NCBI RefSeq assembly: GCF_000007145.1
Contig: NC_003902.1
Span: 3,536,497-3,568,496, forward strand
Direction: 5' to 3'
Length of the DNA stretch: 32,000 nt
Source of the DNA: Xanthomonas campestris pv. campestris str. ATCC 33913
GTDB lineage: Bacteria; Pseudomonadota; Gammaproteobacteria; Xanthomonadales; Xanthomonadaceae
Positions 1 through 16,349 of the stretch are shown in pieces (position 1 is the first letter of the stretch; each line of letters begins with the position of its first letter). The notes under the pieces are model-generated. The model saw nothing but the letters and a program-made list of their open reading frames with translations, made no database searches and had not been told where the DNA came from. Position numbers and translations under genes: made by a program.

Positions 1-135
1 GCCGATACGGGCGACGTGCTTGGCCTGGGCCGCAAGATCAACTTGGGCAACGTGCGTGCCAAGCGCTTGCCCGAAGGCCACAGCGATCGCGTCACGCGCA
101 CGCAGCGCGCCCTGCAGATCCTGGGCGTGAGCTGA
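1..135 (+). CDS. 3' end of a phage lysis gene, probably the endolysin (partial; start outside window)
   Basis: Frame 1 is open from the window edge to TGA 133-135 (..KINLGNVRAKRLPEGHSDRVTRTQRALQILGVS*). The stop overlaps the next ATG (TGATG). This is the endolysin position in P2-type lysis cassettes. Function is assigned mostly from position. Confidence 0.45.
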   Translation, partial: ADTGDVLGLGRKINLGNVRAKRLPEGHSDRVTRTQRALQILGVS

Positions 136-623
136 TGGTCACGCGCCTGATCATCCTGCTGGCGCTGATTGCAGCGCTCGTCGGTAGCTGCGTGTGGCAG
201 GAGCAGCGCGTCAGCGCCGCGCAGAAAGACCGCGATGCGGCGCTGCAGGCCAAGCGCCTGGCCGAAGCTCAACGCGACAGCGCCAAAGGCTCCACCACCG
301 TCGTGACGCAGTACGTCGACCGCGTGCAGATCGTGCGCGAAGCCGGCGCCACTATCACCCGTGAGATCCCGATCTATGTCACCCAGAAAGCCGATGCTGC
401 TTGCGCTATCCCTGCTGGTTTTGTGCGGCTGCATGACGCCGCCGCCACGGGCAACCCTGCCGGGCCGCCCACCGGAGATCCTGATGCGCCGACCGCCGGC
501 ATTACGCTCTCTGCCATCGCTGGCACCGTCGCAGACAACTACACCAGCTGCCATGCAACCGCCGCGCAGCTGAGCGCGCTGCAGGACTGGATCGACCTGC
601 AGGTACCGGAGCCGGCGCCATGA
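135..623 (+). CDS. i-spanin (LysB/Rz-like inner-membrane spanin subunit)
   Basis: 162 aa with an N-terminal TM segment (LIILLALIAALVGSCVW) followed by an Ala/Gln/Arg-rich helical stretch. It lies between a lysis gene and tail gene R and contains an embedded +1-frame lipoprotein ORF. Confidence 0.7.
   Translation: MVTRLIILLALIAALVGSCVWQEQRVSAAQKDRDAALQAKRLAEAQRDSAKGSTTVVTQYVDRVQIVREAGATITREIPIYVTQKADAACAIPAGFVRLHDAAATGNPAGPPTGDPDAPTAGITLSAIAGTVADNYTSCHATAAQLSALQDWIDLQVPEPAP
376..573 (+). CDS. o-spanin (LysC/Rz1-like outer-membrane lipoprotein), fully embedded in the +1 frame of the i-spanin gene
   Basis: Signal peptide MSPRKPMLLALSLLVLCGC has a basic n-region, a hydrophobic core and a lipobox-like L-C-G-C. 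The mature part is Pro-rich (TPPPRATLPGRPPE..), typical of Rz1. Alternative starts are GTG 361 and ATG 394. Confidence 0.6.
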   Translation: MSPRKPMLLALSLLVLCGCMTPPPRATLPGRPPEILMRRPPALRSLPSLAPSQTTTPAAMQPPRS

Positions 624-1039
624 TCAAGCCCGCCAGCCTGCGCGCGCATCTGGTCGCGGCCTTGCCGGATCTGGCACGCGATGCCGACCGGCTGCTGGTG
701 TTTATCGACGCCGGTAGCCTGGTCAGCACTTTCCAGCCGGGACTGTCGTTCGAGTACCAGTACACGCTCAATCTGATCTTGACCGACTACGCCGGCCACC
801 CGGACAGCGTGATGCTGCCGCTGCTGGAATGGGTGCAGGTCAATCAGTCCGAGCTGCTGTCCAATCCCGCGCGCCGTGGCGACATCGCCTTCGAGGCTGA
901 CATCCTCGCCAACGATGCCGTGGATCTGTCGATCAAGTTGCCGCTGACCGAGCGCGTTGTCGTGACTGCGAAGGATGGCGTCGGCTACGACATCACGCAT
1001 GCGCCCGAGCCAGTGATCGATACGACATGGATGAGCTGA
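620..1039 (+). CDS. R: tail completion protein, P2 gpR family
   Basis: 139 aa with an ATGA start/stop overlap with the spanin gene. Sequence (..RAHLVAALPDLARDADRLLVFID..YQYTLNLILTDY..) and position match the gpR family. Confidence 0.8.
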   Translation: MIKPASLRAHLVAALPDLARDADRLLVFIDAGSLVSTFQPGLSFEYQYTLNLILTDYAGHPDSVMLPLLEWVQVNQSELLSNPARRGDIAFEADILANDAVDLSIKLPLTERVVVTAKDGVGYDITHAPEPVIDTTWMS

Positions 1040-1485
1040 CCGCACTGGAGAACTGGGCCGCACCGCTGCTTGCGCGCCTGCAGCCCGGTGAACGCCGCAC
1101 GCTGGCACGCAAGATCGGAACGGAACTGCGGCGCTCGCAGAGCCAACGTATCGGCAAGCAGCAAGCGCCTGATGGCACGCCATACGCACCGCGCAAGCAG
1201 CAGCTGCGACAGAAATCCGGGCGCGTCAAACGCGCGAAGATGTTTGCCAAGCTGCGGCAAGCCAAGTTCTTCAAGGTCAGCGCAACTCCCAACGCTGTGA
1301 GCGTAGGATTCGTGGGGCGCGTGTCCCGCATTGCCCGTGTGCATCAAGAGGGGCTAACGGAACGTATCCGGGCGGGCGGACCCAAAGCGCGCTATGCCAA
1401 ACGTGGATTGATTGGAATAAGCAAGCACGACAGTAAAGAAATTGGAAATCTAATAATTTCAGCTCTTGGTGATTATCGTCTATGA
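1027..1485 (+). CDS. S: tail completion / virion morphogenesis protein, P2 gpS family; 3' ~100 nt is AT-rich (mosaic)
   Basis: 152 aa, overlapping R by 13 nt. N-terminal region (..LLARLQPGERRTLARKIGTELRRSQSQRI..QAPDGTPYAPRK..) is gpS-like. The C-terminus (RGLIGISKHDSKEIGNLIISALG) keeps the family pattern but is encoded by low-GC DNA. Confidence 0.8.
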   Translation: MDELTALENWAAPLLARLQPGERRTLARKIGTELRRSQSQRIGKQQAPDGTPYAPRKQQLRQKSGRVKRAKMFAKLRQAKFFKVSATPNAVSVGFVGRVSRIARVHQEGLTERIRAGGPKARYAKRGLIGISKHDSKEIGNLIISALGDYRL

Positions 1486-1524
1486 TCGGGGTGCATACTT
1501 CACCACTCACGCAAAGGAATAGAA

Positions 1525-1737
1525 ATGAGTCTCGAATTCAAGACGGCGATGATCTACGGGGATCTAAGTTCAGATAGCGCCTCCGAGCAATATCCGGAAG
1601 TCACGGCTTGCACAGATTGTATCGAAAAAGATAGCAAGCGCGCCGAGGATCAAGAAATCGTTCAAATCACTGGCGATTACGACTCTTCGTATGGTGAGGA
1701 ATGCCATTTTTGCGATACACCCGCCGAGCCAGATTAA
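1525..1737 (+). CDS. small, strongly acidic protein with a CxxC-x27-CxxC (zinc-ribbon-like) pattern; function unknown
   Basis: 70-aa ORF in the AT-rich island with an AAGGAA Shine-Dalgarno-like motif 7 nt upstream. Cys29/32 and Cys60/63 are paired as CxxC, and the protein is Asp/Glu-rich. Confidence 0.6.
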   Translation: MSLEFKTAMIYGDLSSDSASEQYPEVTACTDCIEKDSKRAEDQEIVQITGDYDSSYGEECHFCDTPAEPD

Positions 1738-1771
1738 TTCATTTTCAATAACTTAATGAAATTGAATTAAA

Positions 1772-2458
1772 ATGCCAAGCAAAGAAGAGACCCCGCAACC
1801 TAAACAAGGCGCGCATAATGCGGTGCCTTGGTATAGACAAAAAATAACTTTCTTGTCATTGCTTGCCCCGGTTTTTATTTTCCTCGGCTGGATCCTCCTA
1901 AGTGGACCAACTGCGCTTCAGAACTCGCGAATACTTCCAGATGAAGTAAATAAAACATGGCATGCTTTCAGTAGCTGGCTTCACGAGGATGAGGAATGGA
2001 CTGGAACATGGTCTGCCACACCTGAAGGGTATGTTGATTTTGAAGAAATGCTCCTGTCTGATACTGACCTTATAATTACACTATCTTCATCAGAAGGAAA
2101 TTTAAGTGGCACTGTAGCTAGTAAATCCATTTGCCGAGCCATGCCTTTATTTAATTTTAATTTATTAGAAGGGAGTGTTTCTGCGCTTGGCAGCAGAGCG
2201 GAAATTAAAGTATTCGATCATATTGGCGGGAAAAGATTGGATCTTGGCTCTATACAATTGCGGCGTAACGGCCCCGTTATGGATGTGATTGCCGGGGCTA
2301 TATTTTTGCAGGTTCTTCCCGTTCCAGTTCGGATAGCTCGACATCCAAACGGATCCGAATCCAGCCAACCTGAACCTATGAGTGACTACTGCGCAAAAGA
2401 ACGAGAAGCTTTGTTTGAGAAATTACGGAATGAGTCTGGCGACGAAAAAATCCAGTAA
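1772..2458 (+). CDS. single-pass membrane protein, function unknown (N-in anchor plus ~180-aa extracytoplasmic domain predicted)
   Basis: 228-aa ORF, 34 nt downstream of the previous gene and with the same AT-rich composition. It has one hydrophobic helix (ITFLSLLAPVFIFLGWILLSGP, aa ~24-45). No motif was recognised in the remainder. Confidence 0.65.
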   Translation: MPSKEETPQPKQGAHNAVPWYRQKITFLSLLAPVFIFLGWILLSGPTALQNSRILPDEVNKTWHAFSSWLHEDEEWTGTWSATPEGYVDFEEMLLSDTDLIITLSSSEGNLSGTVASKSICRAMPLFNFNLLEGSVSALGSRAEIKVFDHIGGKRLDLGSIQLRRNGPVMDVIAGAIFLQVLPVPVRIARHPNGSESSQPEPMSDYCAKEREALFEKLRNESGDEKIQ

Positions 2459-2615
2459 GCGACCATTTTATCTTTCGAATTTATGAAGGGAAAAAGGATA
2501 CAACGATTTCCGACGCACCAATTCACCTTGTAAAACCAGCTAAGACTAGCTGAGTCACTGGAAGCGGCATGCGGTCACATTGATGCTTGATGCATGTTCC
2601 TTGCAGCAAGCGGCC

Positions 2616-3506
2616 ATGGCTTCTTTTACGGCAGTTGACCTATCTAAGCTCCAAGCGCCAGATTTGATCGAGGCTCTGGACTTCGAAACGATATTCGCCG
2701 AAGCGCTGGCTCAATTCCGCCGACTGATGCCGGAGTTCTCTGCACTCACCGAAGCGGAACCGGTCTACAAGCTCGTGCAACTGTTCGCGGCCCGCGAGCT
2801 GCTGATTCGCCAGCGCGCCAACGACAAGGCGCAGCAGACGATGCTGGCCTTCGCCACTGGCACCAACCTTGATCACCTCGGCGCGCTGTTCGGTGTGGCG
2901 CGCCTGGTGCTCGCTCCGGGGCAACCTGAGACCGGCATTGCACCGACCCATGAGTCGGACGTGGACTTCCGCCGCCGCATCCAGCTGGCGCCCGAGGGCT
3001 TCAGCGTTGCCGGCCCCGAGGGCGCGTACATCTATCACGCGCTCAGCGCGGCGGCCGACGTCATGGATGCCAGCGCTACCAGCCCCGCGCCTGGGCAAGT
3101 GCTGGTCACCGTGCAATCGCGCACCGGCGACGGCACCGCACCGCAGGAACTGCTCGACGAAGTGGCCGCTGTCCTCACCGATGCCGACGTGCGCCCGTTG
3201 ACCGACGAGGTAGCTGTCCAGAGCGCACAGATCGTCCCATACGCCATTCGTGGGCGCGTCTACACCTACGCCGGGCCCGACTCGGCGGTGGTCATGCGCG
3301 AGGCGCTGCGCAGCCTGCAGGCCTATCTTGCCGAGGCGCACCGCATCGGCCGCGACGTCCCCGAGTCGGCCATCAAGGCCAAGCTGTTCGCTGATGGCGT
3401 GCAGCGTGTTGAGTTGGACTCGCCTGCAGCCGACATCCGCATTAGCCGCACGCAGGCTGCGTACTGCACTGCGATCGACATCGTGCACGCCGGCATCGAT
3501 GAGTAA
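2616..3506 (+). CDS. J: baseplate assembly protein J (P2 gpJ family)
   Basis: The MASFTAVDLSKLQAPDLIEALDFETIFAE.. N-terminus matches the gpJ family start. The ORF is open from TTG 2580/ATG 2583, so the start could be 33-36 nt further upstream. Confidence 0.9.
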   Translation: MASFTAVDLSKLQAPDLIEALDFETIFAEALAQFRRLMPEFSALTEAEPVYKLVQLFAARELLIRQRANDKAQQTMLAFATGTNLDHLGALFGVARLVLAPGQPETGIAPTHESDVDFRRRIQLAPEGFSVAGPEGAYIYHALSAAADVMDASATSPAPGQVLVTVQSRTGDGTAPQELLDEVAAVLTDADVRPLTDEVAVQSAQIVPYAIRGRVYTYAGPDSAVVMREALRSLQAYLAEAHRIGRDVPESAIKAKLFADGVQRVELDSPAADIRISRTQAAYCTAIDIVHAGIDE

Positions 3507-4047
3507 TTCTCCGCTGCCGCCCAATGCCACGCCGATGGAACGCGCCCTGGCGGCCGTCACCGAGCGCCTGGAAGCGATCCCGCTGCCGTATCCAGATCTG
3601 TGGAATCCGGACACGTGCCCAGCCGGCCATCTGCCGTGGCTGGCGTGGACGCTCTCGGTTGACGACTGGAAGGCCGACTGGAGCGATGCGGTCAAGCGTT
3701 CGCGCTTGCGTAGCGCTATGGCAATCCAACGCCGCAAGGGCACCGCCAATAGCGTGCGCATGGTGGTGGCCTCGTTCGGGGGTGCGGTGACCATCCGCGA
3801 GTGGTGGCAGCAGCAGCCACGCGGCCAGCCGCACACCTTTGAGCTGACCCTTACGCTCAATGGATCTGATGGCAGAGCCGCAAGCGCTCGATTTGTCGAT
3901 GAGGTCATCGCCGAGGTTGAGCGCACCAAGCCGGTCCGCTCGCACTTCGGCTTCGTGCAGGGGCTACAAGCCACCGGCAATGTCTCGCTGGTTACCGGTG
4001 TTCGCATCATCAACTACCGCCGTCTGTCGATGATGGCGCAGGGATAA
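3499..4047 (+). CDS. I: tail protein I (P2 gpI family)
   Basis: ATG 3499 overlaps the J stop (ATGAGTAA). Sequence MSNSPLPPNATPMERALAAV..HLPWLAWTLSVDDW..RKGT matches gpI. The upstream part of ORF 3250-4047 overlaps J and is not coding. Confidence 0.9.
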   Translation: MSNSPLPPNATPMERALAAVTERLEAIPLPYPDLWNPDTCPAGHLPWLAWTLSVDDWKADWSDAVKRSRLRSAMAIQRRKGTANSVRMVVASFGGAVTIREWWQQQPRGQPHTFELTLTLNGSDGRAASARFVDEVIAEVERTKPVRSHFGFVQGLQATGNVSLVTGVRIINYRRLSMMAQG

Positions 4048-4050
4048 GCT

Positions 4051-5256
4051 ATGGCATTACAACTCATCCTCACCACCGCCGGTCGCGCGGCGCTGATCAA
4101 CGCCGAGAAGAACGGCACCAACGCCGTCAAGGTGACCAGCATCGGTTTTACGGCGGCGGCATTCGCTGCAACGGAAGACCTGAAGACAGTCCCAGGCCAG
4201 CACCTGACGCTCTCCAGCATCTCGGGCGGCACCACGTCGTCCACCACCATCCACGTCACTGTCAGCGACACGAGCCGGGCAACCTATGAGGTTCGCGGCT
4301 TTGGGCTGTACTTGGAAAACGGCACGCTGCTGGGCAGCTATTCCCAGCCCGAGCTGATCATGGAGAAGGCCGCCGCCTCGGATCTGCTGATGTCCGCCGA
4401 CATCCTGTTTTCTGGGGTCACGGTGTCTTCGGTGACGTTTGGCAATGCCAACTTCACCAATCCGGCTGCCACCACCGAGAAGGAAGGCATTGTCGAACTC
4501 GCCACACGTGTTGAGGCCATCGCAGGCACGGATGCACAACGTGCCGTCACACCGGACGCACTGAAAGCCGCGATCGACAGCCGCAGCGGCTGTGCGCGCT
4601 TTGAGGCATCCGGCACCTTTGCGGTCCCGGCAGGGGTGACGGCGATCTACGTGAGCGCATGTGCCGGCGGAGGTGGTGGCGGTGGCGGTGGAACCCGCGC
4701 CGAGAAGTCCAATGGGTCGGGGGTCTACACCGCAACTGGCGGGGGCGGCGGAGGCGCTGGGCAGTCGATTCAGCGCGTGCGCTTTGCGGTCACACCTGGC
4801 GTCAGCCATCCGATCGTCATCGGTGCCGGTGGATCAGCTGGCGCAGGCTCACGGACGGATGGCGCATCTGGAGCCGCCGGTAGTGCCGGGGGGGCGACGG
4901 TCATCGGCAATCTCATCACCCTGGCTGGAGGTCAGGGCGGCGGCGGCGGGCTGACGGGCGCTAATCAGGTTGGCGGCGCGGCCGGCGGAGATGGCTATCC
5001 GGCCGGCGGTGACTCGGCATCTATTGCTGCGGTTTCGCCCTACGGCCCTGCCGGCACCGGAGGCTCGTGCGCGTTTGGCGGTGGCGGGCCCGGCGGTCGC
5101 AGTGCGGGCGACACCACATCGGCTAGCCGCAAGGGCTATGGGTTTGGCGCTGGCGGCGGTGGTGGCGGCGGTGTGTCCAACGGTGCTGGAGTAAGCACGT
5201 TCGGCAAGGATGGGGCCGTCGGGTGCCCTGGCTTCGTTTTCATTGAGTGGTGCTGA
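4051..5256 (+). CDS. tail fibre protein: P2 gpH-like N-terminal attachment domain plus glycine-rich C-terminal domain
   Basis: The N-terminus (MALQLILTTAGRAALINAEKNGTNAV..TTEKEGIVELATRVEAIAGTDAQRAVTPDALKAAI) is the conserved phage tail-fibre N-terminal/collar region. The C-terminal ~210 aa are Gly-rich with several poly-Gly runs. Confidence 0.85.
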   Translation: MALQLILTTAGRAALINAEKNGTNAVKVTSIGFTAAAFAATEDLKTVPGQHLTLSSISGGTTSSTTIHVTVSDTSRATYEVRGFGLYLENGTLLGSYSQPELIMEKAAASDLLMSADILFSGVTVSSVTFGNANFTNPAATTEKEGIVELATRVEAIAGTDAQRAVTPDALKAAIDSRSGCARFEASGTFAVPAGVTAIYVSACAGGGGGGGGGTRAEKSNGSGVYTATGGGGGGAGQSIQRVRFAVTPGVSHPIVIGAGGSAGAGSRTDGASGAAGSAGGATVIGNLITLAGGQGGGGGLTGANQVGGAAGGDGYPAGGDSASIAAVSPYGPAGTGGSCAFGGGGPGGRSAGDTTSASRKGYGFGAGGGGGGGVSNGAGVSTFGKDGAVGCPGFVFIEWC

Positions 5257-5257
5257 G

Positions 5258-5485
5258 ATGACGATTGGTCGTTATGCAATGATCCAGACCGGCAACGACG
5301 TGGTGGTCAACGTCATCGTTTCCGATAGCAGCTTCACCATTGACGGCTTCGAGTTTCGCGCAGTCCAAGACAAAACCGTTTGCGAGCCGGGCATGTACTT
5401 CAATCGCCGCGACGGGCTGTATTACTTCGACGCGCAGTTCACCCAGCGCGAAGTCATTACACCTGAGCCGCCTACCAATTTGTAG
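5258..5485 (+). CDS. small protein downstream of the fibre gene; possible tail-fibre assembly/chaperone protein
   Basis: 75 aa, with ATG 2 nt after the fibre stop, at the position of P2 gpG. No motif was recognised, so the call rests on position only. Confidence 0.45.
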   Translation: MTIGRYAMIQTGNDVVVNVIVSDSSFTIDGFEFRAVQDKTVCEPGMYFNRRDGLYYFDAQFTQREVITPEPPTNL

Positions 5486-5494
5486 CACCGCTGC

Positions 5495-5513
5495 GCTGCG
5501 TAGATCACGCAGC
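5495..5513 (+). other. perfect 7-bp hairpin (GCTGCGT-agatc-ACGCAGC) in the fibre-module/V spacer
   Basis: Read directly from the sequence. No T-run follows, so it is not a canonical intrinsic terminator. Confidence 0.4.
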
Positions 5514-5563
5514 TACAGCACAACTGCGGTGTCATCCTGCACGCGCGCGACGACCATGACTGC

Positions 5564-6127
5564 ATGGGCAACGCATCCTCCGCACTGAGTAACGCCATTC
5601 GCCTCGGCACCGTCGCCGAGGTGAACCTGGTCAACGCACGTTGTCGCGTGCAGGTCGGCGAGATGCTGACCGACTACCTGCCTTGGGTGGTCACGCTGGC
5701 CGGCACCACCATCATCTGGTCAGCGCCTGCAATCGGCGAGCAAGTCGTGGTGCTATCGCCTGCAGGCGACCTGGCCGATGGTCTGGTGCTACGCGGCCTG
5801 TACTCCGACCAATTCGCCGCGCCTGCCGCGTCAGACACGCTCCACGTGCTGCGCTTTGCCGATGGCGCGCAGATTCATTACGACACCGAGGCGCATGCGC
5901 TGCAGGCCACGCTACCAAGCGGCGGCACCGCGTCCATTACTGCCGATGGCGGCATCACGCTCAACGGCCCGCTGACGGTCAACGGCGCCACCCAGATCAA
6001 TGGCGAGGTCGGCATTACCGGCACCGCGACCGTCGACACCGACGTGGTGGGCGGCGGGATCAGCCTCAAGCATCACAAGACCACCGGCGTGACCGCCGGT
6101 ACCGCGCTCAGCGGGGGCCCGCAGTGA
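5564..6127 (+). CDS. V: baseplate assembly protein V / spike (P2 gpV family)
   Basis: ..IRLGTVAEVNLVNARCRVQVGEMLTDYLPWVVTLAGTTIIWSAPAIGEQVVVLSPAGDLADGLVLRGLYS.. is the typical gpV N-terminal domain. Confidence 0.9.
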   Translation: MGNASSALSNAIRLGTVAEVNLVNARCRVQVGEMLTDYLPWVVTLAGTTIIWSAPAIGEQVVVLSPAGDLADGLVLRGLYSDQFAAPAASDTLHVLRFADGAQIHYDTEAHALQATLPSGGTASITADGGITLNGPLTVNGATQINGEVGITGTATVDTDVVGGGISLKHHKTTGVTAGTALSGGPQ

Positions 6128-6483
6128 TCGGTGTCGACGCCACCACCGGGCGCGTGATCGAGGGCGAGCAGCACCTGGCCCAGTCGATCGCCTGCATCCT
6201 CACCACGCCGGTCGGAGCGCGCGTGCACCGCCGCGACTTCGGCTCGCTGCTCCCCGAGCTGATTGACCAGCCGTTCAACGGCGCCACCCGCACGCTGCTC
6301 TACGGCGCCACCGCTACCGCGCTGATGCGCTGGGAGCCGCGCCTGCGGCTGACGCGCGTCGGCCTGGTCGTCGGTGATGCACCCGGCAGCTTCGTACTGA
6401 CCATCGAAGGCCAGCGCACTGACGTTGCGCCCGCCAATGCGCGCTCGCGCCTGACCATCCCGCTCCGCTTCCGCTCGTCCTGA
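6124..6483 (+). CDS. W: baseplate wedge protein W (GPW/gp25 family)
   Basis: GTG 6124 overlaps the V stop (GTGA). VIGVDATTGRVIEGEQHLAQSIACILTTPVGARVHRRDFGSLLPELID is the GPW/gp25 signature. The longer ORF from 5641 overlaps V and is rejected. Confidence 0.85.
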   Translation: MIGVDATTGRVIEGEQHLAQSIACILTTPVGARVHRRDFGSLLPELIDQPFNGATRTLLYGATATALMRWEPRLRLTRVGLVVGDAPGSFVLTIEGQRTDVAPANARSRLTIPLRFRSS

Positions 6484-6494
6484 TCGAGGAACCT

Positions 6495-7661
6495 ATGTCC
6501 ACTGCCTACCACCACGGCGTTCGCGTCATCGAAGTCAGCGCAGGTGCGCGCGTCATCCGCACCGTCTCCACTGCCATTGTCGGCCTGGTCGCTACGGCGT
6601 CCGATGCGGATGAAAAGGTCTTCCCGCTCAACAAGGCTGTGATGCTCACCGACGTGCTGGGTGCCATCGCCAGTGCCGGCACCAAAGGCACCTTGCGCGA
6701 CACCCTGCAGGGCATCGCCGATCAGACCAATCCCGTGACCGTGGTCGTGCGTGTGGCCGAAGACGAAGACGCGGACAAGACCTCGTCCAACGTCATCGGC
6801 GAGGCCAAGTCCAGCGGTTACACCGGCCTATATGCCTTGCTCGCCGCGCAGGCACAGCTGGGCGTGCGGCCGCGCATCTTGGGCGCCCCTGGCCTGGACA
6901 CGCTGCCGGTGGCCAAGGCGCTTGCGACCATCGCCAAGAAGCTGCGCGCCATGGCCTATGTGCGACCGGTCGCCGAGACCGTCGCGGAGGCAGTCACCTA
7001 CCGCGGCCAGTTCAGCGACCGCGAGCTGATGCTGATCTGGCCGGACTTCTTGGCCTTCGATACCACCACCAGCACCACGACCGCCGCGTACGCCACCGCG
7101 CGTGCGCTCGGTCTGCGCGCCAAGATCGACACCGAACAGGGCTGGCACAAGAGTCTGTCCAACGTGCCCGTGGCCGGCGTCACCGGCATCTCCAAGGATG
7201 TGCATTGGGATCTGCAGGATCCGGCCACCGATGCCGGCGTGCTCAACGAGGGCGACATCACCACGCTGATCACCTTCAACGGCCAGCGCTTCTGGGGCTC
7301 GCGCACGTGCGCCGAAGACAACATGTTCGCCTTCGAGACGGCCACGCGCACCGCGCAGGTCCTGGCCGACACCATCGCCGAGGGCGTGGCGTTCTACGTC
7401 GACAAGCCGATGCATCCCTCGCTGGTCAAAGACATCGTCGAAGACATCAACGCCAAGTTCCGCGACCTGAAGGCATCCGGCTATCTGATCGACGCCACCG
7501 CCTGGTTCGACGGCACGGTCAATAGCGCCACCACGCTTGCCGATGGCGCGCTGCGCATTGACTACGACTACACGCCGGTGCCGCCGCTGGAGAACCTGCA
7601 GCTGTACCAGAAGATCACCACCAGCTACCTGGCCGACTTCGCCGAACGCGTCAACGCGTAA
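6495..7661 (+). CDS. FI: contractile tail sheath protein FI
   Basis: 388 aa with a GAGGAA RBS. Sequence MSTAYHHGVRVIEV..TVSTAIVGLVATA.. and the C-terminal ..IDYDYTPVPPLENL.. match P2 FI. Confidence 0.95.
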   Translation: MSTAYHHGVRVIEVSAGARVIRTVSTAIVGLVATASDADEKVFPLNKAVMLTDVLGAIASAGTKGTLRDTLQGIADQTNPVTVVVRVAEDEDADKTSSNVIGEAKSSGYTGLYALLAAQAQLGVRPRILGAPGLDTLPVAKALATIAKKLRAMAYVRPVAETVAEAVTYRGQFSDRELMLIWPDFLAFDTTTSTTTAAYATARALGLRAKIDTEQGWHKSLSNVPVAGVTGISKDVHWDLQDPATDAGVLNEGDITTLITFNGQRFWGSRTCAEDNMFAFETATRTAQVLADTIAEGVAFYVDKPMHPSLVKDIVEDINAKFRDLKASGYLIDATAWFDGTVNSATTLADGALRIDYDYTPVPPLENLQLYQKITTSYLADFAERVNA

Positions 7662-8700: not shown

Positions 8701-11571
8701 ATGGCGGCCTCTGACAATCTGCGCCTGCAGGTCATCCTGGCCGCAGTCGATCGCGCCACCGGTCCGTTCCGCCGCGTGCTCAATGGCAGCCGTGGCGTTG
8801 CCACGGCGCTACGCAACCAGCGTGATGCGCTGCGCCAGCTCAACAGCCAACACCGCGACATCGGCGCCTACCGCGAGCAGGTGGCTATGGCGCAGCGCGC
8901 CAAGGCCGCGCTCGATGCGCAGAGGCAGTCGGTGCGCACGCTTGCCCAACAGATGAAGGCGGCCGGCACGCCCACAGCAGCAATGAATGCCGAGTTCGAG
9001 CGCGCCGTGCGCACTGCCCGGGAGCTCAAGGCCGCCCATGGTGCACAGGAAGCCGGCCTGCAGCGGCTGCGCGGCCGGCTGGAGACGGCCGGGATCAGCA
9101 CCCGCGAGCTCGTCACCCACGAGCGCCGGCTGCGCAGCGAGATCGAGAGCACCAACACCGCCCTGCGCGCCCAGCAGCAACGCCTGGTGGCGATCGACGC
9201 CGCACAGCGCCGCAGCGCCCGCATCCAGGGCGCCGGCCTGCAAGCGAGCGCCTACGGCGCGGGTATGGCGTTCGCCGGCCAGCGCGCCTTGCGCGCCTCC
9301 GCACTGCCGATCAGCGATGCGATGGAATTCGAGTCCGCCATGGCGGACGTGCGCAAGGTCGTGGACTTCAGCACACCGCAGCAGTTCGCCCAGATGGGCC
9401 GCGATGTGGAGAACCTGTCCATGCGCCTACCGATGCTGCCGGCCGATATCGCCAAGATCGTGGCGGCCGCCGGCCAAGCGTCCATCCCGCGCCAGGAGCT
9501 GGTCCGCTTCGCTGAGGATGCGGCGAAGATGGGCGTGGCATTCGACAGCAGCGCAGAGGAAGCCGGCCAGACGATGGCGACCTGGCGCACGGCGTTTCGC
9601 ATGGGCCAGGCCGAGGTGGTCGTGCTGGCCGACAAGATCAACTACCTCGGCAACACCGGCCCGGCGAGCGTCAACAAGATCAGCGCGGTGGTGAACCGCA
9701 TCGGTGCCCTGGGCGAAGTCGCCGGCCTGCAGAGCGGCCCGCTGGCGGCCCTGGGCGCCACCGTCGCCGGTATGGGTATCGAGTCGGAGGTTTCGGCCAC
9801 CGGCATCAAGAACATGCTGCTCACCCTGGCCTCGGGCGAGTCGGCCACCAAGAGCCAGCGCGAGGCCTTCGACAAGCTGGGCATCAAGGCCACCACCATG
9901 GCCCAGGTGATGCAGAAGGACGCCGGCGGGGCAATCATGTCCGTGCTGCAGAAGCTGCGCGCACTGCCCAAAGCAGAGCAGGCAGCGACCATGACGCAGC
10001 TGTTCGGCCGCGAGTCGATCGGTGCGATCGCACCGCTGCTGACCAATCTGGAGCTCCTGCAGGGCAACTTCGCCAAGGTCGCCGACGCGCAGCGCTACGG
10101 CGGCTCGATGTCGGCCGAGTACGCATCGCGGGTGGCCACCTCGGCCAACTCGCTGCAGCTGCTGAAGAACACCGCCGTGGTGGTGTCCCAGTCGATCGGC
10201 CAGACCCTGCTGCCGCAGTTCAAGGAATTGACCGAGCGCACCGCAGCCGTGGTCGGCCAGGTCACAACGTGGATCCGCGCCAATCCAGCCCTGGTCGGCG
10301 CGATCGCAAAGGTGGCGATCGGCGCCGCTGCGCTGGTCACGATCCTGGGCGGGCTGTTGGTGGCCGGCGGCGTCGCCGCGATGGCGTTCTCGCAGATCCA
10401 CGGCGCCGTGGCGCTGCTGTCGGGCGGCGGCGGGTTCGGCGTGCTGATTCGCCAGGCGCTGTCGTTCGGCGGCCGCGTGCTGCCCATGCTCGCCAACGGC
10501 GCGCGCCTGCTGCTGCCAGTGCTCGGCGGCGTCAGCTTGCCGGTGCTGGCGATCGGTGCAGCCGTTGCGGCGGTGGCGCTGCTGGTGTGGAAGTACTGGG
10601 GGCCGATCAAGGCCTTCGCCATCGGCGTGTGGCAAGGCATCGTCGATGTGGCCGCGCCGGTGCTGGCCGAGCTGCAGACCGCGCTCGCGCCGCTGGGCCC
10701 GGTGTGGGACACGGTGGCCGCCGCGATGGGCCAGGCCTGGGCGTGGGTGAAGCAGCTGCTGACACCGTTCGAGGCCACCACCGCGCAGTTGCACGGTGCA
10801 ACCCAGGCCGGCCGCGGCTTCGGGCAGATCCTGGGCGCGGTGCTGGTCACCCAGCTGCAACTGGCGGTCAAGGCGATCGGTTGGCTCGTGCAGGCGTTCG
10901 TGTTCGTGCTGCCGGTCATCAAGCAGATCCTCGGCGGCGTGTGGCAAACCGTCCAGGGCACGTGGTCGCTGATCGTCGGCGTGTTCACCGGCAACGGCGA
11001 TCGCATCCGCCAAGGGCTTCTACAGCTGTGGGCCGGTATCAACCTGCAGTTGGCCAACTGGCCGGCCCGGATGCTGCAGGCCGGCGCGGATATGATCAGC
11101 GGCCTTGTTCAAGGCATCCGCTCCAAGCTCGGCGCCGCCAGCAATGCGATCGCCAGCGTCGGCACCGGCGTGGTCGATCGCTTCAAGGGCGTGCTGGGCA
11201 TCCACAGCCCCTCGCGCGTGTTCGCCCAGTTGGGCGACTTCACCATGCAAGGCCTCACCGTGGGCCTGCAGCGCGGCCAGGGCGCGCCTGTGCAGGCCGT
11301 CATGGCGCTTGGCAACCGGATGCGTGCGGTGGGCGCCGGCCTGGCCCTGGCGACGGCCACAGCGCCTGTGGCGGCGATCGACAGCCGGGCGCCGCTGTCG
11401 GCACCTACGCGGGCCGCCAGCGCGCCTGCAGGCAGCAACAGCTACGTCATCCATGTCCATGCCGCACCCGGAATGGATGCGAACGCACTGGCGCGCGAAG
11501 TCGCCCGCCAGATCGAAGAGCGCGAACGGCGCACGGCGGCCACTCGCCGCTCCAGCCTGCGCGACGACTGA
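8701..11571 (+). CDS. T: tail tape measure protein T
   Basis: 956 aa with an N-terminal coiled-coil-like region, a central conserved TMP core (..MEFESAMADVRKVVDF..INYLGNTGPASV..), a Gly/Ala/Leu-rich hydrophobic stretch and C-terminal ..GIHSPSRVF... Confidence 0.95.
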   Translation: MAASDNLRLQVILAAVDRATGPFRRVLNGSRGVATALRNQRDALRQLNSQHRDIGAYREQVAMAQRAKAALDAQRQSVRTLAQQMKAAGTPTAAMNAEFERAVRTARELKAAHGAQEAGLQRLRGRLETAGISTRELVTHERRLRSEIESTNTALRAQQQRLVAIDAAQRRSARIQGAGLQASAYGAGMAFAGQRALRASALPISDAMEFESAMADVRKVVDFSTPQQFAQMGRDVENLSMRLPMLPADIAKIVAAAGQASIPRQELVRFAEDAAKMGVAFDSSAEEAGQTMATWRTAFRMGQAEVVVLADKINYLGNTGPASVNKISAVVNRIGALGEVAGLQSGPLAALGATVAGMGIESEVSATGIKNMLLTLASGESATKSQREAFDKLGIKATTMAQVMQKDAGGAIMSVLQKLRALPKAEQAATMTQLFGRESIGAIAPLLTNLELLQGNFAKVADAQRYGGSMSAEYASRVATSANSLQLLKNTAVVVSQSIGQTLLPQFKELTERTAAVVGQVTTWIRANPALVGAIAKVAIGAAALVTILGGLLVAGGVAAMAFSQIHGAVALLSGGGGFGVLIRQALSFGGRVLPMLANGARLLLPVLGGVSLPVLAIGAAVAAVALLVWKYWGPIKAFAIGVWQGIVDVAAPVLAELQTALAPLGPVWDTVAAAMGQAWAWVKQLLTPFEATTAQLHGATQAGRGFGQILGAVLVTQLQLAVKAIGWLVQAFVFVLPVIKQILGGVWQTVQGTWSLIVGVFTGNGDRIRQGLLQLWAGINLQLANWPARMLQAGADMISGLVQGIRSKLGAASNAIASVGTGVVDRFKGVLGIHSPSRVFAQLGDFTMQGLTVGLQRGQGAPVQAVMALGNRMRAVGAGLALATATAPVAAIDSRAPLSAPTRAASAPAGSNSYVIHVHAAPGMDANALAREVARQIEERERRTAATRRSSLRDD

Positions 11572-12968: not shown

Positions 12969-13053
12969 GCCGGTTGAAGTAAGAATTCCCCCTATAGTTG
13001 GCAGGCGGGAATTGTTGGTAAGCTGTTAAAAATATTTCCTATGGAGGGGTAAC

Positions 13054-14202
13054 TTGAAAAAGACCGGGCATCGAGACCCTAAGGATGGCCTTAAACACAC
13101 GGTTCGCTCCAAGGACCGTGAGCGCCGAAATATTAAAAGAAAGGATTGCAATTATATTTCTGGCAGATACGGCCAGCACATACCAACGAAGAACTATAAA
13201 TTTAAACTAAAAGGGAAAGTGCGTGGAACTGAATTTGTGCGCCTTCCCGCCACAATGGATTTGTCGTCTGACGAAAATAGAAATGATGTTCTTTCCGCAA
13301 TCGCACGCATAAAATCTGCGTCTCTATATGGCAACTATCGTAAGGTTGTGCTTGATCATACTTCAGTAACATCTATGTCTCCCGAAGTAGCGATGCTGAT
13401 GCTTGCGGAAATTCAAAGATGTAGAATTTACTGCGAACCAAGGACGCAGCTCACCGGCACTTATCCCGCAAACCATGATGTCTCTCATCTTTTGACGGAA
13501 ATAGGTTTCTATAAATCATTAGGAATAAAAGCTCCCAAGCTTCCAGCGACCTACGACTCGCGGACTTACATCAGAGTTGAGCGGCATAACAAGATCTTAG
13601 CAAAGGTAGCTGACGACCTACTCACATGCTTTGAAACTGAATTCACTTTTTCACCTCAAGATAAGCGCCGTCTCCAGATAGCGTTAGTAGAGTGTATGGA
13701 CAATGTCTTTCAGCACGCATACGTTTTTAACGAATCATGTCCAGCTGAAGCACATTTGTTTCGTGAATGGTGGATGGTCGGCTATTCAGATAGCACAGAC
13801 AAATCGATTTCATTCAGTTTCCTAGATCAAGGTAGAGGCATTGCTTCTACAATTCGGCGCAAGCTCGGCCGCAGTGTGATTGGCAAGTTGGGGGCCTGGC
13901 ATGATGGTCACTTCATTTCACGCGCCGTGCGAAAACGCATCTCTAGAATCGACTCAAAACGCCGAGGTCACGGACTGAAAAAGCTCAAAGCATTCGTAGA
14001 TAGGCTTGACTTTAACGGAACTCTTCGTGTACTGGCGAACAATGGCGATGTACAATGGACCACAGGACAGAAAAGTGTCGAACGTTCGATGCCCACGGAA
14101 CTATCAGGAACTTTGGTGGTCTGGTCTCTAAAGCCACCCCAACTGTTGCCGACCACTACAATATCTCATGCTGACTCAGACCATGAAATCCACCATGTTT
14201 AA
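13054..14202 (+). CDS. GHKL-superfamily (histidine-kinase-like / RsbW-SpoIIAB-like) ATPase with basic N-terminal tail and STAS-like middle region
   Basis: 382 aa; TTG start with GGAGGGG 6 nt upstream. N-box E213-x3-N217-x3-H221-A222 (VECMDNVFQHA), G1 D258-Q-G-R-G262, G2 G305-H-G-L308, G3 G352-T. Residues ~95-160 (VVLDHTSVTSMSPEVAMLMLAEIQR..HLLTEIGFYKSLG) resemble a STAS/anti-sigma-antagonist fold. Residues 1-60 are Lys/Arg-rich. Confidence 0.7.
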   Translation: MKKTGHRDPKDGLKHTVRSKDRERRNIKRKDCNYISGRYGQHIPTKNYKFKLKGKVRGTEFVRLPATMDLSSDENRNDVLSAIARIKSASLYGNYRKVVLDHTSVTSMSPEVAMLMLAEIQRCRIYCEPRTQLTGTYPANHDVSHLLTEIGFYKSLGIKAPKLPATYDSRTYIRVERHNKILAKVADDLLTCFETEFTFSPQDKRRLQIALVECMDNVFQHAYVFNESCPAEAHLFREWWMVGYSDSTDKSISFSFLDQGRGIASTIRRKLGRSVIGKLGAWHDGHFISRAVRKRISRIDSKRRGHGLKKLKAFVDRLDFNGTLRVLANNGDVQWTTGQKSVERSMPTELSGTLVVWSLKPPQLLPTTTISHADSDHEIHHV

Positions 14203-14506
14203 CGTAGCCAAATCTTTTTCTCGCTTCCCAGGGGGGCGAAGGAAAGATCATGGCCAGTTTTCAGGAGAAGAATTTCGTAATAAAGTCACTATTCCCCTGC
14301 TTGATAGTTACGATCATGTTACTTTTGACCTTTCCGGCACAGTCGGCTATAGCTCAGGCTTCTTAGATGAGGCTTTTGGTGAGATTGGTAAAATTCTTGG
14401 AATAAGCGAGGCAAAGCGCAGGGTAACAATCTTGGCTCAAGATGATCCTGAGGCTGTTGAAACAGTCTGGCTTCGTATAAGCGAAGCATCAGCGGAATCC
14501 CGTTAA
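14168..14506 (+). CDS. STAS-like protein (DUF4325-type)
   Basis: 112 aa. The pattern G-x-R..FSGEEFRNKV..PLL..VTFDLSGTVGYSSGFLDEAFGEI resembles the DUF4325/STAS-like family as I recall it, with a Ser pair placed as in the SpoIIAA DSSG motif. It overlaps the upstream gene; alternative starts are ATG 14183 and ATG 14195 (ATGTTTAA overlap). Confidence 0.6.
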   Translation: MLTQTMKSTMFNVAKSFSRFPGGRRKDHGQFSGEEFRNKVTIPLLDSYDHVTFDLSGTVGYSSGFLDEAFGEIGKILGISEAKRRVTILAQDDPEAVETVWLRISEASAESR

Positions 14507-14510
14507 TCTA

Positions 14511-14975
14511 ATGGTTGCGACCCCTTGGTGGTTTACAGTTATATGTATTCTACTCACAGGCCTCATCACCGACAGGCTTTCTCGCATGAGAGAGGCATCT
14601 GCACGGAAGACCGCAGATGTGAAACGCTGGCGTGAAGATTTGACAGAGGAACTCCATGAATGGTGCGCAGCTGCGAGTGAGCACTATACATCCCAAGACT
14701 CCATTAATAACACAGAAAAATCTGCAGCATTGCTAGTAGCTGGGTATCGAAGAATTCGACGCAATGCCGGCAAGTTTCCAACCATAAATATAGCTGATGG
14801 GGCTAAATGCCGAAGGTTGATGACTGATTTGGATGAGCTTGTAACAGGCGATCCTGATTTCGAAAATCAAAGCCGCGCTCTACGACCAGCAAGAGATCCA
14901 CTTTTAACTGAAATGCATAATCTTGCAGAGAAAATTGAGAATACATTTAATTTTCCGAGGAAAGAAAAATCCTGA
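14511..14975 (+). CDS. membrane-anchored helical protein, function unknown
   Basis: 154 aa, with ATG 4 nt after the previous stop. It has an N-terminal TM helix (WWFTVICILLTGLITD) followed by a charged helical region. Same AT-rich composition as the two upstream genes. Confidence 0.6.
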   Translation: MVATPWWFTVICILLTGLITDRLSRMREASARKTADVKRWREDLTEELHEWCAAASEHYTSQDSINNTEKSAALLVAGYRRIRRNAGKFPTINIADGAKCRRLMTDLDELVTGDPDFENQSRALRPARDPLLTEMHNLAEKIENTFNFPRKEKS

Positions 14976-15166
14976 ATCACTTGTTTTCTTAAGTGTTCCA
15001 CCTATTAGGTTCGCGAATTCTTATTTAACTTATTTGTTTTTAGGAGTTTTCCTACATAGATTTAGCAGTCAATGAGCCATGATTGCGCCGGGATGTCAGG
15101 CCATCTCGAACTGTCAGGATGACGGCTATTCGAACGCACGGAGCCACGCGCCGACACCTAAAGAAG

Positions 15167-16037: not shown

Positions 16038-16349
16038 ATGTCAGCCGTCCTTCCACGACGCAAAGCGGTCTTCATTTGTGAAGGCTGTGGGTCCTCACTG
16101 CACAAGCGCAGTAGCTATCTCACACACCGATTTCTTCGCAACGACGTGTACGTCTGCGACAACCCGGTGTGCGGTGCCAGCTACACCGGTCACACCGAAC
16201 TGACGGGCCTGTGCAGCCCCAGTGGCATGCCACACGCGCACAGCGATTTGCCGCCGACACCAGGCTACCTCCGCGCGATGGCACTCAAAGCGTACCGCGA
16301 GGTTGCCAATGCCGCGCAGATGGATCTTCTAGACGCCGCAGCACCGTAG
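16038..16349 (+). CDS. ogr: Ogr/Delta-family zinc-finger late-gene activator
   Basis: 103 aa. C-x2-C-x22-C-x4-C (CEGCGSSLHKRSSYLTHRFLRNDVYVCDNPVCGASYTGHTEL) matches the P2 Ogr/P4 Delta zinc-finger layout. Confidence 0.8.
   Translation: MSAVLPRRKAVFICEGCGSSLHKRSSYLTHRFLRNDVYVCDNPVCGASYTGHTELTGLCSPSGMPHAHSDLPPTPGYLRAMALKAYREVANAAQMDLLDAAAP

Follow-up and report, generated by a model that had tools for sequence, protein, structure and literature searches.

A 32,000-nucleotide stretch of the Xanthomonas campestris pv. campestris str. ATCC 33913 genome (NC_003902.1, positions 3,536,497 to 3,568,496; hereafter the window) begins among the late genes of a P2-like prophage with a GC content of 65%, where a low-GC cassette carrying two small genes, here called A and B, separates the tail completion gene S from the baseplate gene J. 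Comparison with related prophages showed that the S-J junction of Smp131-type P2-like Xanthomonas prophages is a recombination hotspot for accessory genes, and A and B are almost certainly accessory cargo of this hotspot rather than part of the phage structural machinery. The predicted product of B is likely an inner-membrane protein with a cytoplasmic N-terminus whose helical stalk carries a disulfide-braced, lipocalin-like barrel into the periplasm. Its function can be put forward only tentatively: B may protect the lysogen by excluding phages at the cell envelope.

The junction was surveyed in 80 IMG/VR contigs encoding an S protein 76-95% identical to that of the window, and J was located downstream of S in 70 of these. 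The gene order R-S-J-I...V-W was found in all 70, and the distance from S to J was either 100 bp (10 contigs, considered empty) or between 700 and 3816 bp (the other 60). All 60 fillers had a GC content of 0.42-0.53, compared with 0.58-0.67 for the contigs that contain them, and together they represented at least 35 unrelated cargo families (counted at ≥130 aa). A and B were present in 7 of the 70 contigs. Defence-type cargo in the slot included Shedu SduA (2e-152), a retron RT-Toprim protein (4e-217), the PADLOC candidate PDC-S15, HEPN_AbiU2, FRG and DUF3800, while other fillers carried a YopJ-family acetyltransferase, a chemoreceptor (methyl-accepting chemotaxis protein, MCP), histidine kinase, response-regulator and GGDEF proteins, an amidase, and insertion sequence (IS) elements. 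Many cargo families had no annotation. Cargos also stack in the slot, as seen in X. cannabis, where a third, FRG-domain gene (L007 8724-9479, minus strand) has been added between B and J of an A+B cassette. A first-pass annotation, made by a model from the letters of the window, had taken the pair for cargo of the moron type and had proposed looking at this junction in related prophages. That idea was borne out: the content of the slot turns over among relatives, being empty in 10 of 70 and filled with varied, unrelated low-GC genes in 60, and genes of the B family also occur outside phages, and we therefore consider the cassette to be acquired horizontally.

Cassettes of this kind, with cargo inserted in the post-S hotspot, are already known from P2-like prophages. 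Phage Smp131 and its xanthomonad relatives have the order R-S-J-I-H-G-V-W (PMC3931495), and in a P2-like prophage of Xanthomonas euvesicatoria pv. perforans the gpS-gpJ interval, which is the slot considered here, has been reported to contain xopJ4 (AvrXv4) (PMC11573517). A YopJ-family acetyltransferase was also among the alternative cargos in our survey. The cargo itself differs: the plant phenotype of XopJ4, a secreted type III effector, is known, whereas A and B have no recognised domain or phenotype. The diversity of the slot in xanthomonad prophages, the activator-type dyad that closes it (see below), and both protein families do not appear to have been described in the libraries and papers that were searched.

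The limits of the cassette (∼1.2 kb) were defined by its GC dip and by BLASTN. Homology to relatives with an empty site or other cargo ended at 1361-1416 and restarted at 2615/2616, the ATG of J, which places the left limit within the last ∼23 codons of S. Relatives with other cargo matched S only over residues 1-143 to 1-149 and had different S C-termini, indicating that cassette exchange rewrites the tail of S; the AT-rich last ∼23 codons of this essential gene (window 1400-1485) move with the cassette. Composition also set the cassette apart from the phage backbone. Its GC content was 0.440, against 0.653 and 0.651 in the two flanks, and GC at third codon positions was 0.51 in A and 0.37 in B versus 0.71 in S and 0.78 in J. 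The island had been described earlier as roughly 35-45% GC; the low GC was confirmed, but the figure was slightly too low, as 200-bp windows across the cassette ranged from 0.405 to 0.48.

The same annotation had placed the island inside the tail operon, at a point where P2 was said to have no spacer. Neither statement could be retained. In the P2 record, S (8915-9367) is followed by a putative O-operon terminator, the oppositely oriented, non-essential Orf30 (9439-10224), the pV activator site (10239-10266) and V, so that the gene after S and orf30 in P2 is V, not J. The orf30, TO and Z regions are places where foreign genes occur in P2-like phages (PMC3091744). The orf30 region shares with the S-J slot its place directly downstream of S and ahead of the next late operon's activator site and promoter, and like it is non-essential and acquires genes horizontally. 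It differs in that the next operon starts with V in P2 but with J in this prophage and in Smp131 (PMC3931495), and in having one gene only, the 261-aa Orf30 in reverse orientation, which is likened to the A/B slot by position and not by sequence. Judged by position, then, the S-J slot would be the equivalent of the P2 orf30 locus.

A short inverted repeat close to J supports this arrangement. Of 57 unique cassettes, 20 had an exact TGT-N13-ACA dyad (often TGTAG-N9-CTACA) at -82 to -87 relative to the start codon of J, while shuffles gave 2.5 on average and never more than 7; approximately 46 of the 57 had it at the same position when one mismatch was permitted, as in the window. Apart from the persistence of this dyad, the cassettes shared no BLAST-level similarity upstream of J. 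Across the window as a whole TGT-N13-ACA was not enriched (5 occurrences versus 4.05 expected), and it is the fixed position before J alone that speaks for it. The spacing of the P2 activator dyad is N12, rather than the N13 of the S-J cassettes. Given its fixed position and the fact that the prophage encodes an Ogr/Delta activator, the dyad is probably an Ogr-type late-activator site of the J-operon promoter. If so, the cargo separates two late transcription units instead of interrupting one: S would be the last gene of the capsid/lysis/R-S unit and J the first gene of the next, with the dyad between them.

No signal of its own stood out within the cassette. A promoter and terminator scan of 1300-2750, which used E. 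coli-type consensus sequences, returned nothing above shuffles; no hairpin was seen between S and A; Rfam gave no match over 1300-2750; and folding of the 157-nt spacer between B and J was unremarkable (z = -0.33). With neither a clear promoter or terminator nor a hairpin ahead of A, late read-through of A and B from the R-S unit is likely.

Both open reading frames (ORFs) between S and J were present as first annotated, in their coordinates and in the features of their proteins. Identical copies of A and B were called in several assemblies and read sets, and diverged copies were found in Xanthomonas fragariae, X. citri/campestris, X. cannabis, X. oryzae and X. arboricola. The ratio of nonsynonymous to synonymous substitution rates (dN/dS) versus closer relatives was 0.04-0.05 for A and 0.30 for B, with S at 0.07-0.16, so that B evolves faster than A or S. 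From these values, the invariant cysteines of A (described below) and the identical and diverged copies, A and B are real protein-coding genes under purifying selection, which is very strong in the case of A.

The 70-aa product of A is strongly acidic, with an isoelectric point of 4.05, 18 Asp/Glu versus 4 Lys/Arg, and a net charge of about -14. Its cysteines at residues 29, 32, 60 and 63 form two CxxC pairs with 27 residues between them, and all four were invariant in six homologues with identity down to 49%. This agrees with the initial description of an acidic CxxC-27-CxxC protein resembling a zinc ribbon, and the two invariant knuckles suggest that A probably is one; it is presumably cytoplasmic, as it has no signal or transmembrane segment. 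A had no match in Pfam (even at E≤10), PHROGs, NCBIfam or PADLOC (E≤1), profiles of four and six A sequences found nothing below E 0.5 in a sequence search of the Protein Data Bank (PDB), and a metagenome scan returned no relatives. Ogr/Delta activators resemble A in being ∼70 aa long with four cysteines in two knuckles; A differs in its acidity, its CxxC-27-CxxC spacing and its lack of a Pfam Ogr_Delta match. Descent of A as a paralogue of the prophage's own Ogr was considered and rejected, as BLASTP detected no similarity between the two, and with that spacing A had no Pfam match to Ogr/Delta or DksA/TraR regulators in general.

A homologue of A that is 48% identical was found alone on an unrelated viral contig (L115 3974-4222), in a small GC dip of its own and with no B-like gene; A is thus independently mobile as a mini-moron. 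The neighbours of this homologue are a helix-turn-helix or sigma-like regulator gene and a 245-aa ORF, and it lies upstream of a large gene that, as read from its ORF, is lambda-type terminase-like. With respect to function, it is a reasonable guess that A binds and blocks a basic partner such as a nucleic-acid-binding protein.

B likewise lacked any recognised motif, as had been noted at the outset. It had no match in Pfam or NCBIfam (E≤1), PHROGs or PADLOC (E≤1); in the PDB sequence search, profiles built from 9 and from 62 members gave no match below E 0.5; and B had no tblastn match in 50,697 phage records or 72,556 plasmids. The family itself proved to be large. A word-indexed search with B recovered only 9 close clusters, and one with the 62-sequence profile only 15 proteins, whereas a profile hidden Markov model search of 1.84 billion representative proteins yielded 202 clusters (at 50% identity) at E≤1e-3 and 65 at E≤1e-30. 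Members are mostly 200-250 aa, and every source name retrieved was "hypothetical protein" except for one UniProt "Transmembrane protein".

Conservation among 62 diverse members supports a common topology. The single hydrophobic segment of the 228-aa protein, at residues ∼25-44, matches the one transmembrane helix assigned earlier, and an N-terminal hydrophobic segment was found in 58 of the 62. Lys and Arg were more numerous before this segment than after it in 45 members and less numerous in 4, which by the positive-inside rule is consistent with an N-in orientation. Exactly two cysteines follow the segment in 58 of the 62. Residues W76, G109, G113, C121 and C207 were invariant, and P56, W69, D73, G78, W80, E85, P125, G134 and G153 were at least 90% conserved; a C121-C207 disulfide is probable on this pattern. 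A secreted form of B with a cleaved signal peptide was also considered, but the 24-residue basic N-region and the continuous modelled helix appear to favour a signal anchor.

An AlphaFold2 model of B built on the 62-sequence alignment reached a mean predicted local distance difference test score (pLDDT) of 88.4 and a predicted template modelling score of 0.74, and replaced a first model from 9 sequences (pLDDT 65.6). In the model, the membrane helix (20-43) extends as a stalk to residue 70 and is followed by a short helix (73-76), a strand with G-x-W (78-81), a long loop, and seven more antiparallel strands to residue 190, with a small helix bearing C121 and a C-terminal helix (208-227) that starts at C207. 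This is the order of elements of a lipocalin. The best Foldseek matches were all calycin-type barrels, though none was significant: retinol-binding protein was found at E 0.014, with further matches to fatty acid-binding proteins (FABPs), nitrophorin, the PvdP N-terminal barrel (probability 0.99) and CpcT lyases, and the highest TM-score, 0.54, was to a pneumococcal lipocalin lipoprotein. VtrC appeared among the matches only with the earlier, weaker model. Curated lipocalin sequence models did not recognise B in Pfam or NCBIfam at E≤1, and no PDB sequence match was obtained.

The genomic contexts of the B family were tallied at 14 independent locations outside Xanthomonas prophages, a small sample without a formal background control. 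Several hold recognised defence genes: B lies with NACHT, AbiTii, IS and integrase genes (L010/L011), with a type I restriction-modification system, an AAA_15/21 ATPase and HATPase_c_3 (L107), with PAPS reductase, a BrxC-like ATPase and DUF4007 (L116), and with an integrase, Prim-Pol, DpnII and a 1273-aa SIR2_2 protein (L121). Elsewhere it accompanies an AAA_15/21 ATPase (L015), DUF4062 and NarE (L014), or RES (L018), and it occurs in two further integrase islands (L008, and L119 with ParDE and Imm63 nearby). On another P2-like contig (L026) B lies directly beside the portal gene. The gpA-gpQ locus of P2-like phages is a defence hotspot (PMC9122126), and the position of B on L026 corresponds to its portal (gpQ)-proximal side. 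No conserved neighbour of the B family was found in the contexts examined. A conserved partner gene was therefore discarded as a candidate, as no neighbour recurs. Overall, the distribution is suggestive of a family that is often a solitary gene in defence or mobile islands.

It had also been proposed that A and B form a toxin/antitoxin-like or sensor/effector couple, and the case for one two-component system, in which the zinc-ribbon protein controls B or is controlled by it, deserves consideration because the genes are adjacent, co-oriented and 34 nt apart, and have stayed together in the slot across Xanthomonas species despite divergence (A 71-76%, B ∼50% identity). Whole-cassette inheritance can, however, account for this joint persistence. 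Moreover, A occurs without B on the lambda-type contig L115, B occurs without an A-like ORF in all 14 contexts outside Xanthomonas prophages and without a conserved neighbour of any kind, and the predicted cytoplasmic portion of B, only ∼24 residues, would offer A little surface. We therefore consider a functional couple quite unlikely. Since each is found without the other elsewhere, the distribution shows that A and B are not an obligate pair but two independently mobile single-gene modules inherited together in one cassette.

The account that we favour for the cassette combines hotspot cargo and two separate modules with the following mechanism. B would act alone at the envelope, where its periplasmic domain would bind a ligand or an incoming protein and thereby protect the lysogen, most likely by excluding superinfecting phages at or after adsorption and before their DNA reaches the cytoplasm. 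A would remain in the cytoplasm as an acidic zinc-ribbon mini-protein and would probably bind and block a basic partner, which could be a protein that binds nucleic acids or a regulator of the host or of a phage. A lysogenic-conversion or superinfection-exclusion role is plausible because known defence genes and xopJ4 occupy the same slot in relatives and because relatives of B are often found in defence islands. With regard to superinfection exclusion in particular, B is prophage-encoded and its predicted location is the envelope (one transmembrane segment, N-in, and a periplasmic domain with two invariant cysteines). Several points weigh against this account. Four of the 14 contexts of B are housekeeping or uninformative (L016, L017, L117/118, L120), and the tally has the limits given above. 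The hotspot holds non-defence cargo too (XopJ4, MCP and signalling proteins). Neither A nor B matches any PADLOC, Pfam, PHROGs or NCBIfam model, and all fold matches of B have E above 1e-3 (0.014 or worse) with TM-scores ≤0.54. Lastly, promoter and terminator signals in the cassette do not exceed chance, and A and B may be expressed only by late read-through from R-S. With these points in mind, we place the account as a whole, mechanism included, somewhat short of an even chance, and envelope exclusion by B a little lower still. A broader version is doubtful: B would found a new and widespread family of single-gene envelope exclusion lipocalins, tethered to the inner membrane and present in prophage hotspots and chromosomal defence islands across Proteobacteria, that would intercept, ahead of DNA entry, either a phage component or a receptor or precursor linked to lipid, and A would belong to a separate new family of acidic zinc-ribbon inhibitors that unrelated phages carry as a mini-moron.

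The alternatives differ mainly in what the periplasmic domain of B would bind. B could be a lysogenic-conversion lipocalin that, like VtrC/ToxS or Blc, binds a hydrophobic small molecule (a lipid, a lysophospholipid or a plant compound), whether to sense that molecule or to buffer envelope stress, and would serve host physiology or the interaction with the plant. Ligand-binding calycins (retinol-binding protein, FABPs, nitrophorin, the pneumococcal lipoprotein and VtrC) are indeed the only folds that recur among the matches, the model has the lipocalin layout of a short helix, G-x-W strand, long first loop, eight strands and C-terminal helix, some members of the family lie among housekeeping genes, and a virulence effector, xopJ4, uses the same slot (PMC11573517). 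These fold matches are weak, however, no Pfam lipocalin model was matched, no membrane transcription factor is adjacent as in VtrA/VtrC, and the frequent placement of B in defence or mobile islands would be left unexplained; on balance we regard this role as unlikely. Alternatively, B could be an orphan immunity protein that guards against competitors by countering a periplasm-acting toxin, such as a bacteriocin that resembles colicin M or degrades lipid II, or an amidase or lipase effector of a type VI system. An N-terminal anchor, a small periplasmic domain and one disulfide, all of them predicted for B, also make up Cmi, the immunity protein against colicin M. The relatively fast evolution of B and its solitary occurrence in variable islands beside toxin/immunity-type genes (RES in L018, NarE in L014, ParDE and Imm63 in L119) would also fit. 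Yet none of the contexts has a cognate toxin gene next to B, whose neighbours are not conserved, neither sequence nor fold matched known immunity families, and four contexts (L010, L107, L116, L121) hold recognised phage-defence systems and not toxin loci, which makes an immunity role less likely again than a small-molecule lipocalin.

A role in the lytic cycle of the phage itself, for example in tail assembly, lysis timing or the virion, would agree with the orientation of A and B, which is that of R-S, and with the late transcription, alongside the structural genes, that would follow from the lack of a detected terminator between S and A. It is nevertheless highly improbable. A and B are absent from 63 of the 70 close relatives, 10 of which have the empty 100-bp junction; they are compositionally foreign; relatives of B reside in non-phage chromosomal islands; and the upstream lysis cassette is already complete. 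The searches for a structural or assembly component gave the same picture, with no PHROG match for A or B and no tblastn match for B in the 50,697 phage records.

Among known systems, the defence hotspots of E. coli phages (PMC9122126) provide a close parallel to the junction. Those are 1-5 kb loci between two conserved phage genes, with high turnover and with known defence systems mixed with genes of no assigned role and some non-defence cargo. They differ in location, the E. coli hotspot being gpA-gpQ, next to cos, while the S-J hotspot belongs to xanthomonad phages and is known here from sequence alone. For B, VtrC/ToxS offer a similar architecture, an inner-membrane tether with a periplasmic eight-stranded calycin-type barrel, but they need a neighbouring transmembrane transcription factor, which is absent beside B, and no significant sequence or fold score argues for homology. 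The bacterial lipocalin Blc differs from B in being an outer-membrane lipoprotein. T4 Imm and Sp and HK97 gp15 are small envelope exclusion proteins, encoded by phages or prophages, that stand alone and have no enzymatic domains, and B is like them in this. It differs in having no known homology to them and in belonging to a much broader family that is also chromosomal.

The coordinates of the cassette, its genes and the surrounding prophage features are collected in Table 1. The assignments of the flanking P2 genes gpR, gpS, Baseplate_J and Tail_P2_I were made at E-values of 1e-24 to 1e-52. Neither ORF of the embedded spanin pair upstream had a Pfam match. Further downstream, the Gly_rich_2 fibre is replaced in relatives L007 and L013 by another fibre, 501 aa long and with a Collar domain, so the receptor-binding module is swapped too. 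Megablast of window 1-6500 against phages returned only ∼70% matches, in the lysis/R region of Ralstonia phages.

Table 1. Coordinates of the S-J cassette, its genes and other prophage features in the window.
Feature	Position	Strand	Basis or remark
Exchangeable low-GC cargo cassette	1417..2615		GC dip and BLASTN limits
Gene A, 70 aa, putative zinc ribbon of an unnamed family	1525..1737	+	Presumed cytoplasmic
Gene B, 228 aa, bitopic inner-membrane protein, predicted N-in C-out	1772..2458	+	Hydropathy, family profile, AlphaFold2
Predicted signal-anchor transmembrane helix, B residues 25-44, after basic N-terminal tail	1844..1903	+	Hydropathy peak; model helix 20-43
Predicted periplasmic eight-stranded antiparallel barrel, B residues 75-228	1994..2455	+	AlphaFold2 model, conserved columns
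Putative Ogr-type late activator site of the J-operon promoter	2529..2547	+	TGTAAAACCAGCTAAGACT, one-mismatch copy of the TGT-N13-ACA dyad, 87 nt upstream of J
S, tail completion gene, left anchor of hotspot	1027..1485	+	Pfam Phage_tail_S, E 2.5e-44
Baseplate gene J, right anchor of hotspot	2616..3506	+	Pfam Baseplate_J, E 1.7e-24; start called in L001 corresponds to 2616
Ogr/Delta-type zinc-finger late activator of the prophage	16038..16349	+	Pfam Ogr_Delta, E 1.6e-8, 34.7 bits (cut-off 26.3)
Spanin pair, embedded	135-623 and 361-573		162-aa Rz-like; 70 aa in other frame, lipobox-like LVLCGC
gpR	620-1039		
Tail_P2_I	3499-4047		
Fibre protein	4051-5256		P2 H-like N-terminus and glycine-rich C-terminal domain (Gly_rich_2)
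Small ORF where classical gpG is expected	5210-5485		PHROG 18617
V	5564-6127		Followed by W, sheath and tube
382-aa protein	13054-14202		Second low-GC island; weak histidine-kinase-like ATPase domain
112-aa protein	14168-14506		Second low-GC island; STAS-like DUF4325
154-aa protein	14511-14975		Second low-GC island; N-terminal hydrophobic segment

A second low-GC island (0.44-0.47) was observed at 13000-15000, after tail gene D. None of its three proteins had a PADLOC match; HATPase and DUF4325 proteins were also found among the S-J cargos of relatives.

The survey thus indicates that in P2-like prophages of xanthomonads the S-J junction resembles the P2/P4 defence hotspots of E. coli in its behaviour, and because it is anchored by two easily recognised genes it offers a convenient place to mine for defence and virulence cargo in plant pathogens. 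We feel that the finding is real and modestly interesting, mainly through B as a candidate for testing, and that it will not surprise a specialist. Should B have no effect on phages, it would be one more uncharacterised moron. B nonetheless provides an entry to a 202-cluster family that has no Pfam model but has a confident predicted fold, a clear predicted topology and a recurrent defence-island neighbourhood, which together make it a cheap single-gene candidate for phage-challenge screens. Phage biocontrol of Xanthomonas is in active development, and exclusion genes carried by prophages would have a direct bearing on which phages work on which strains.

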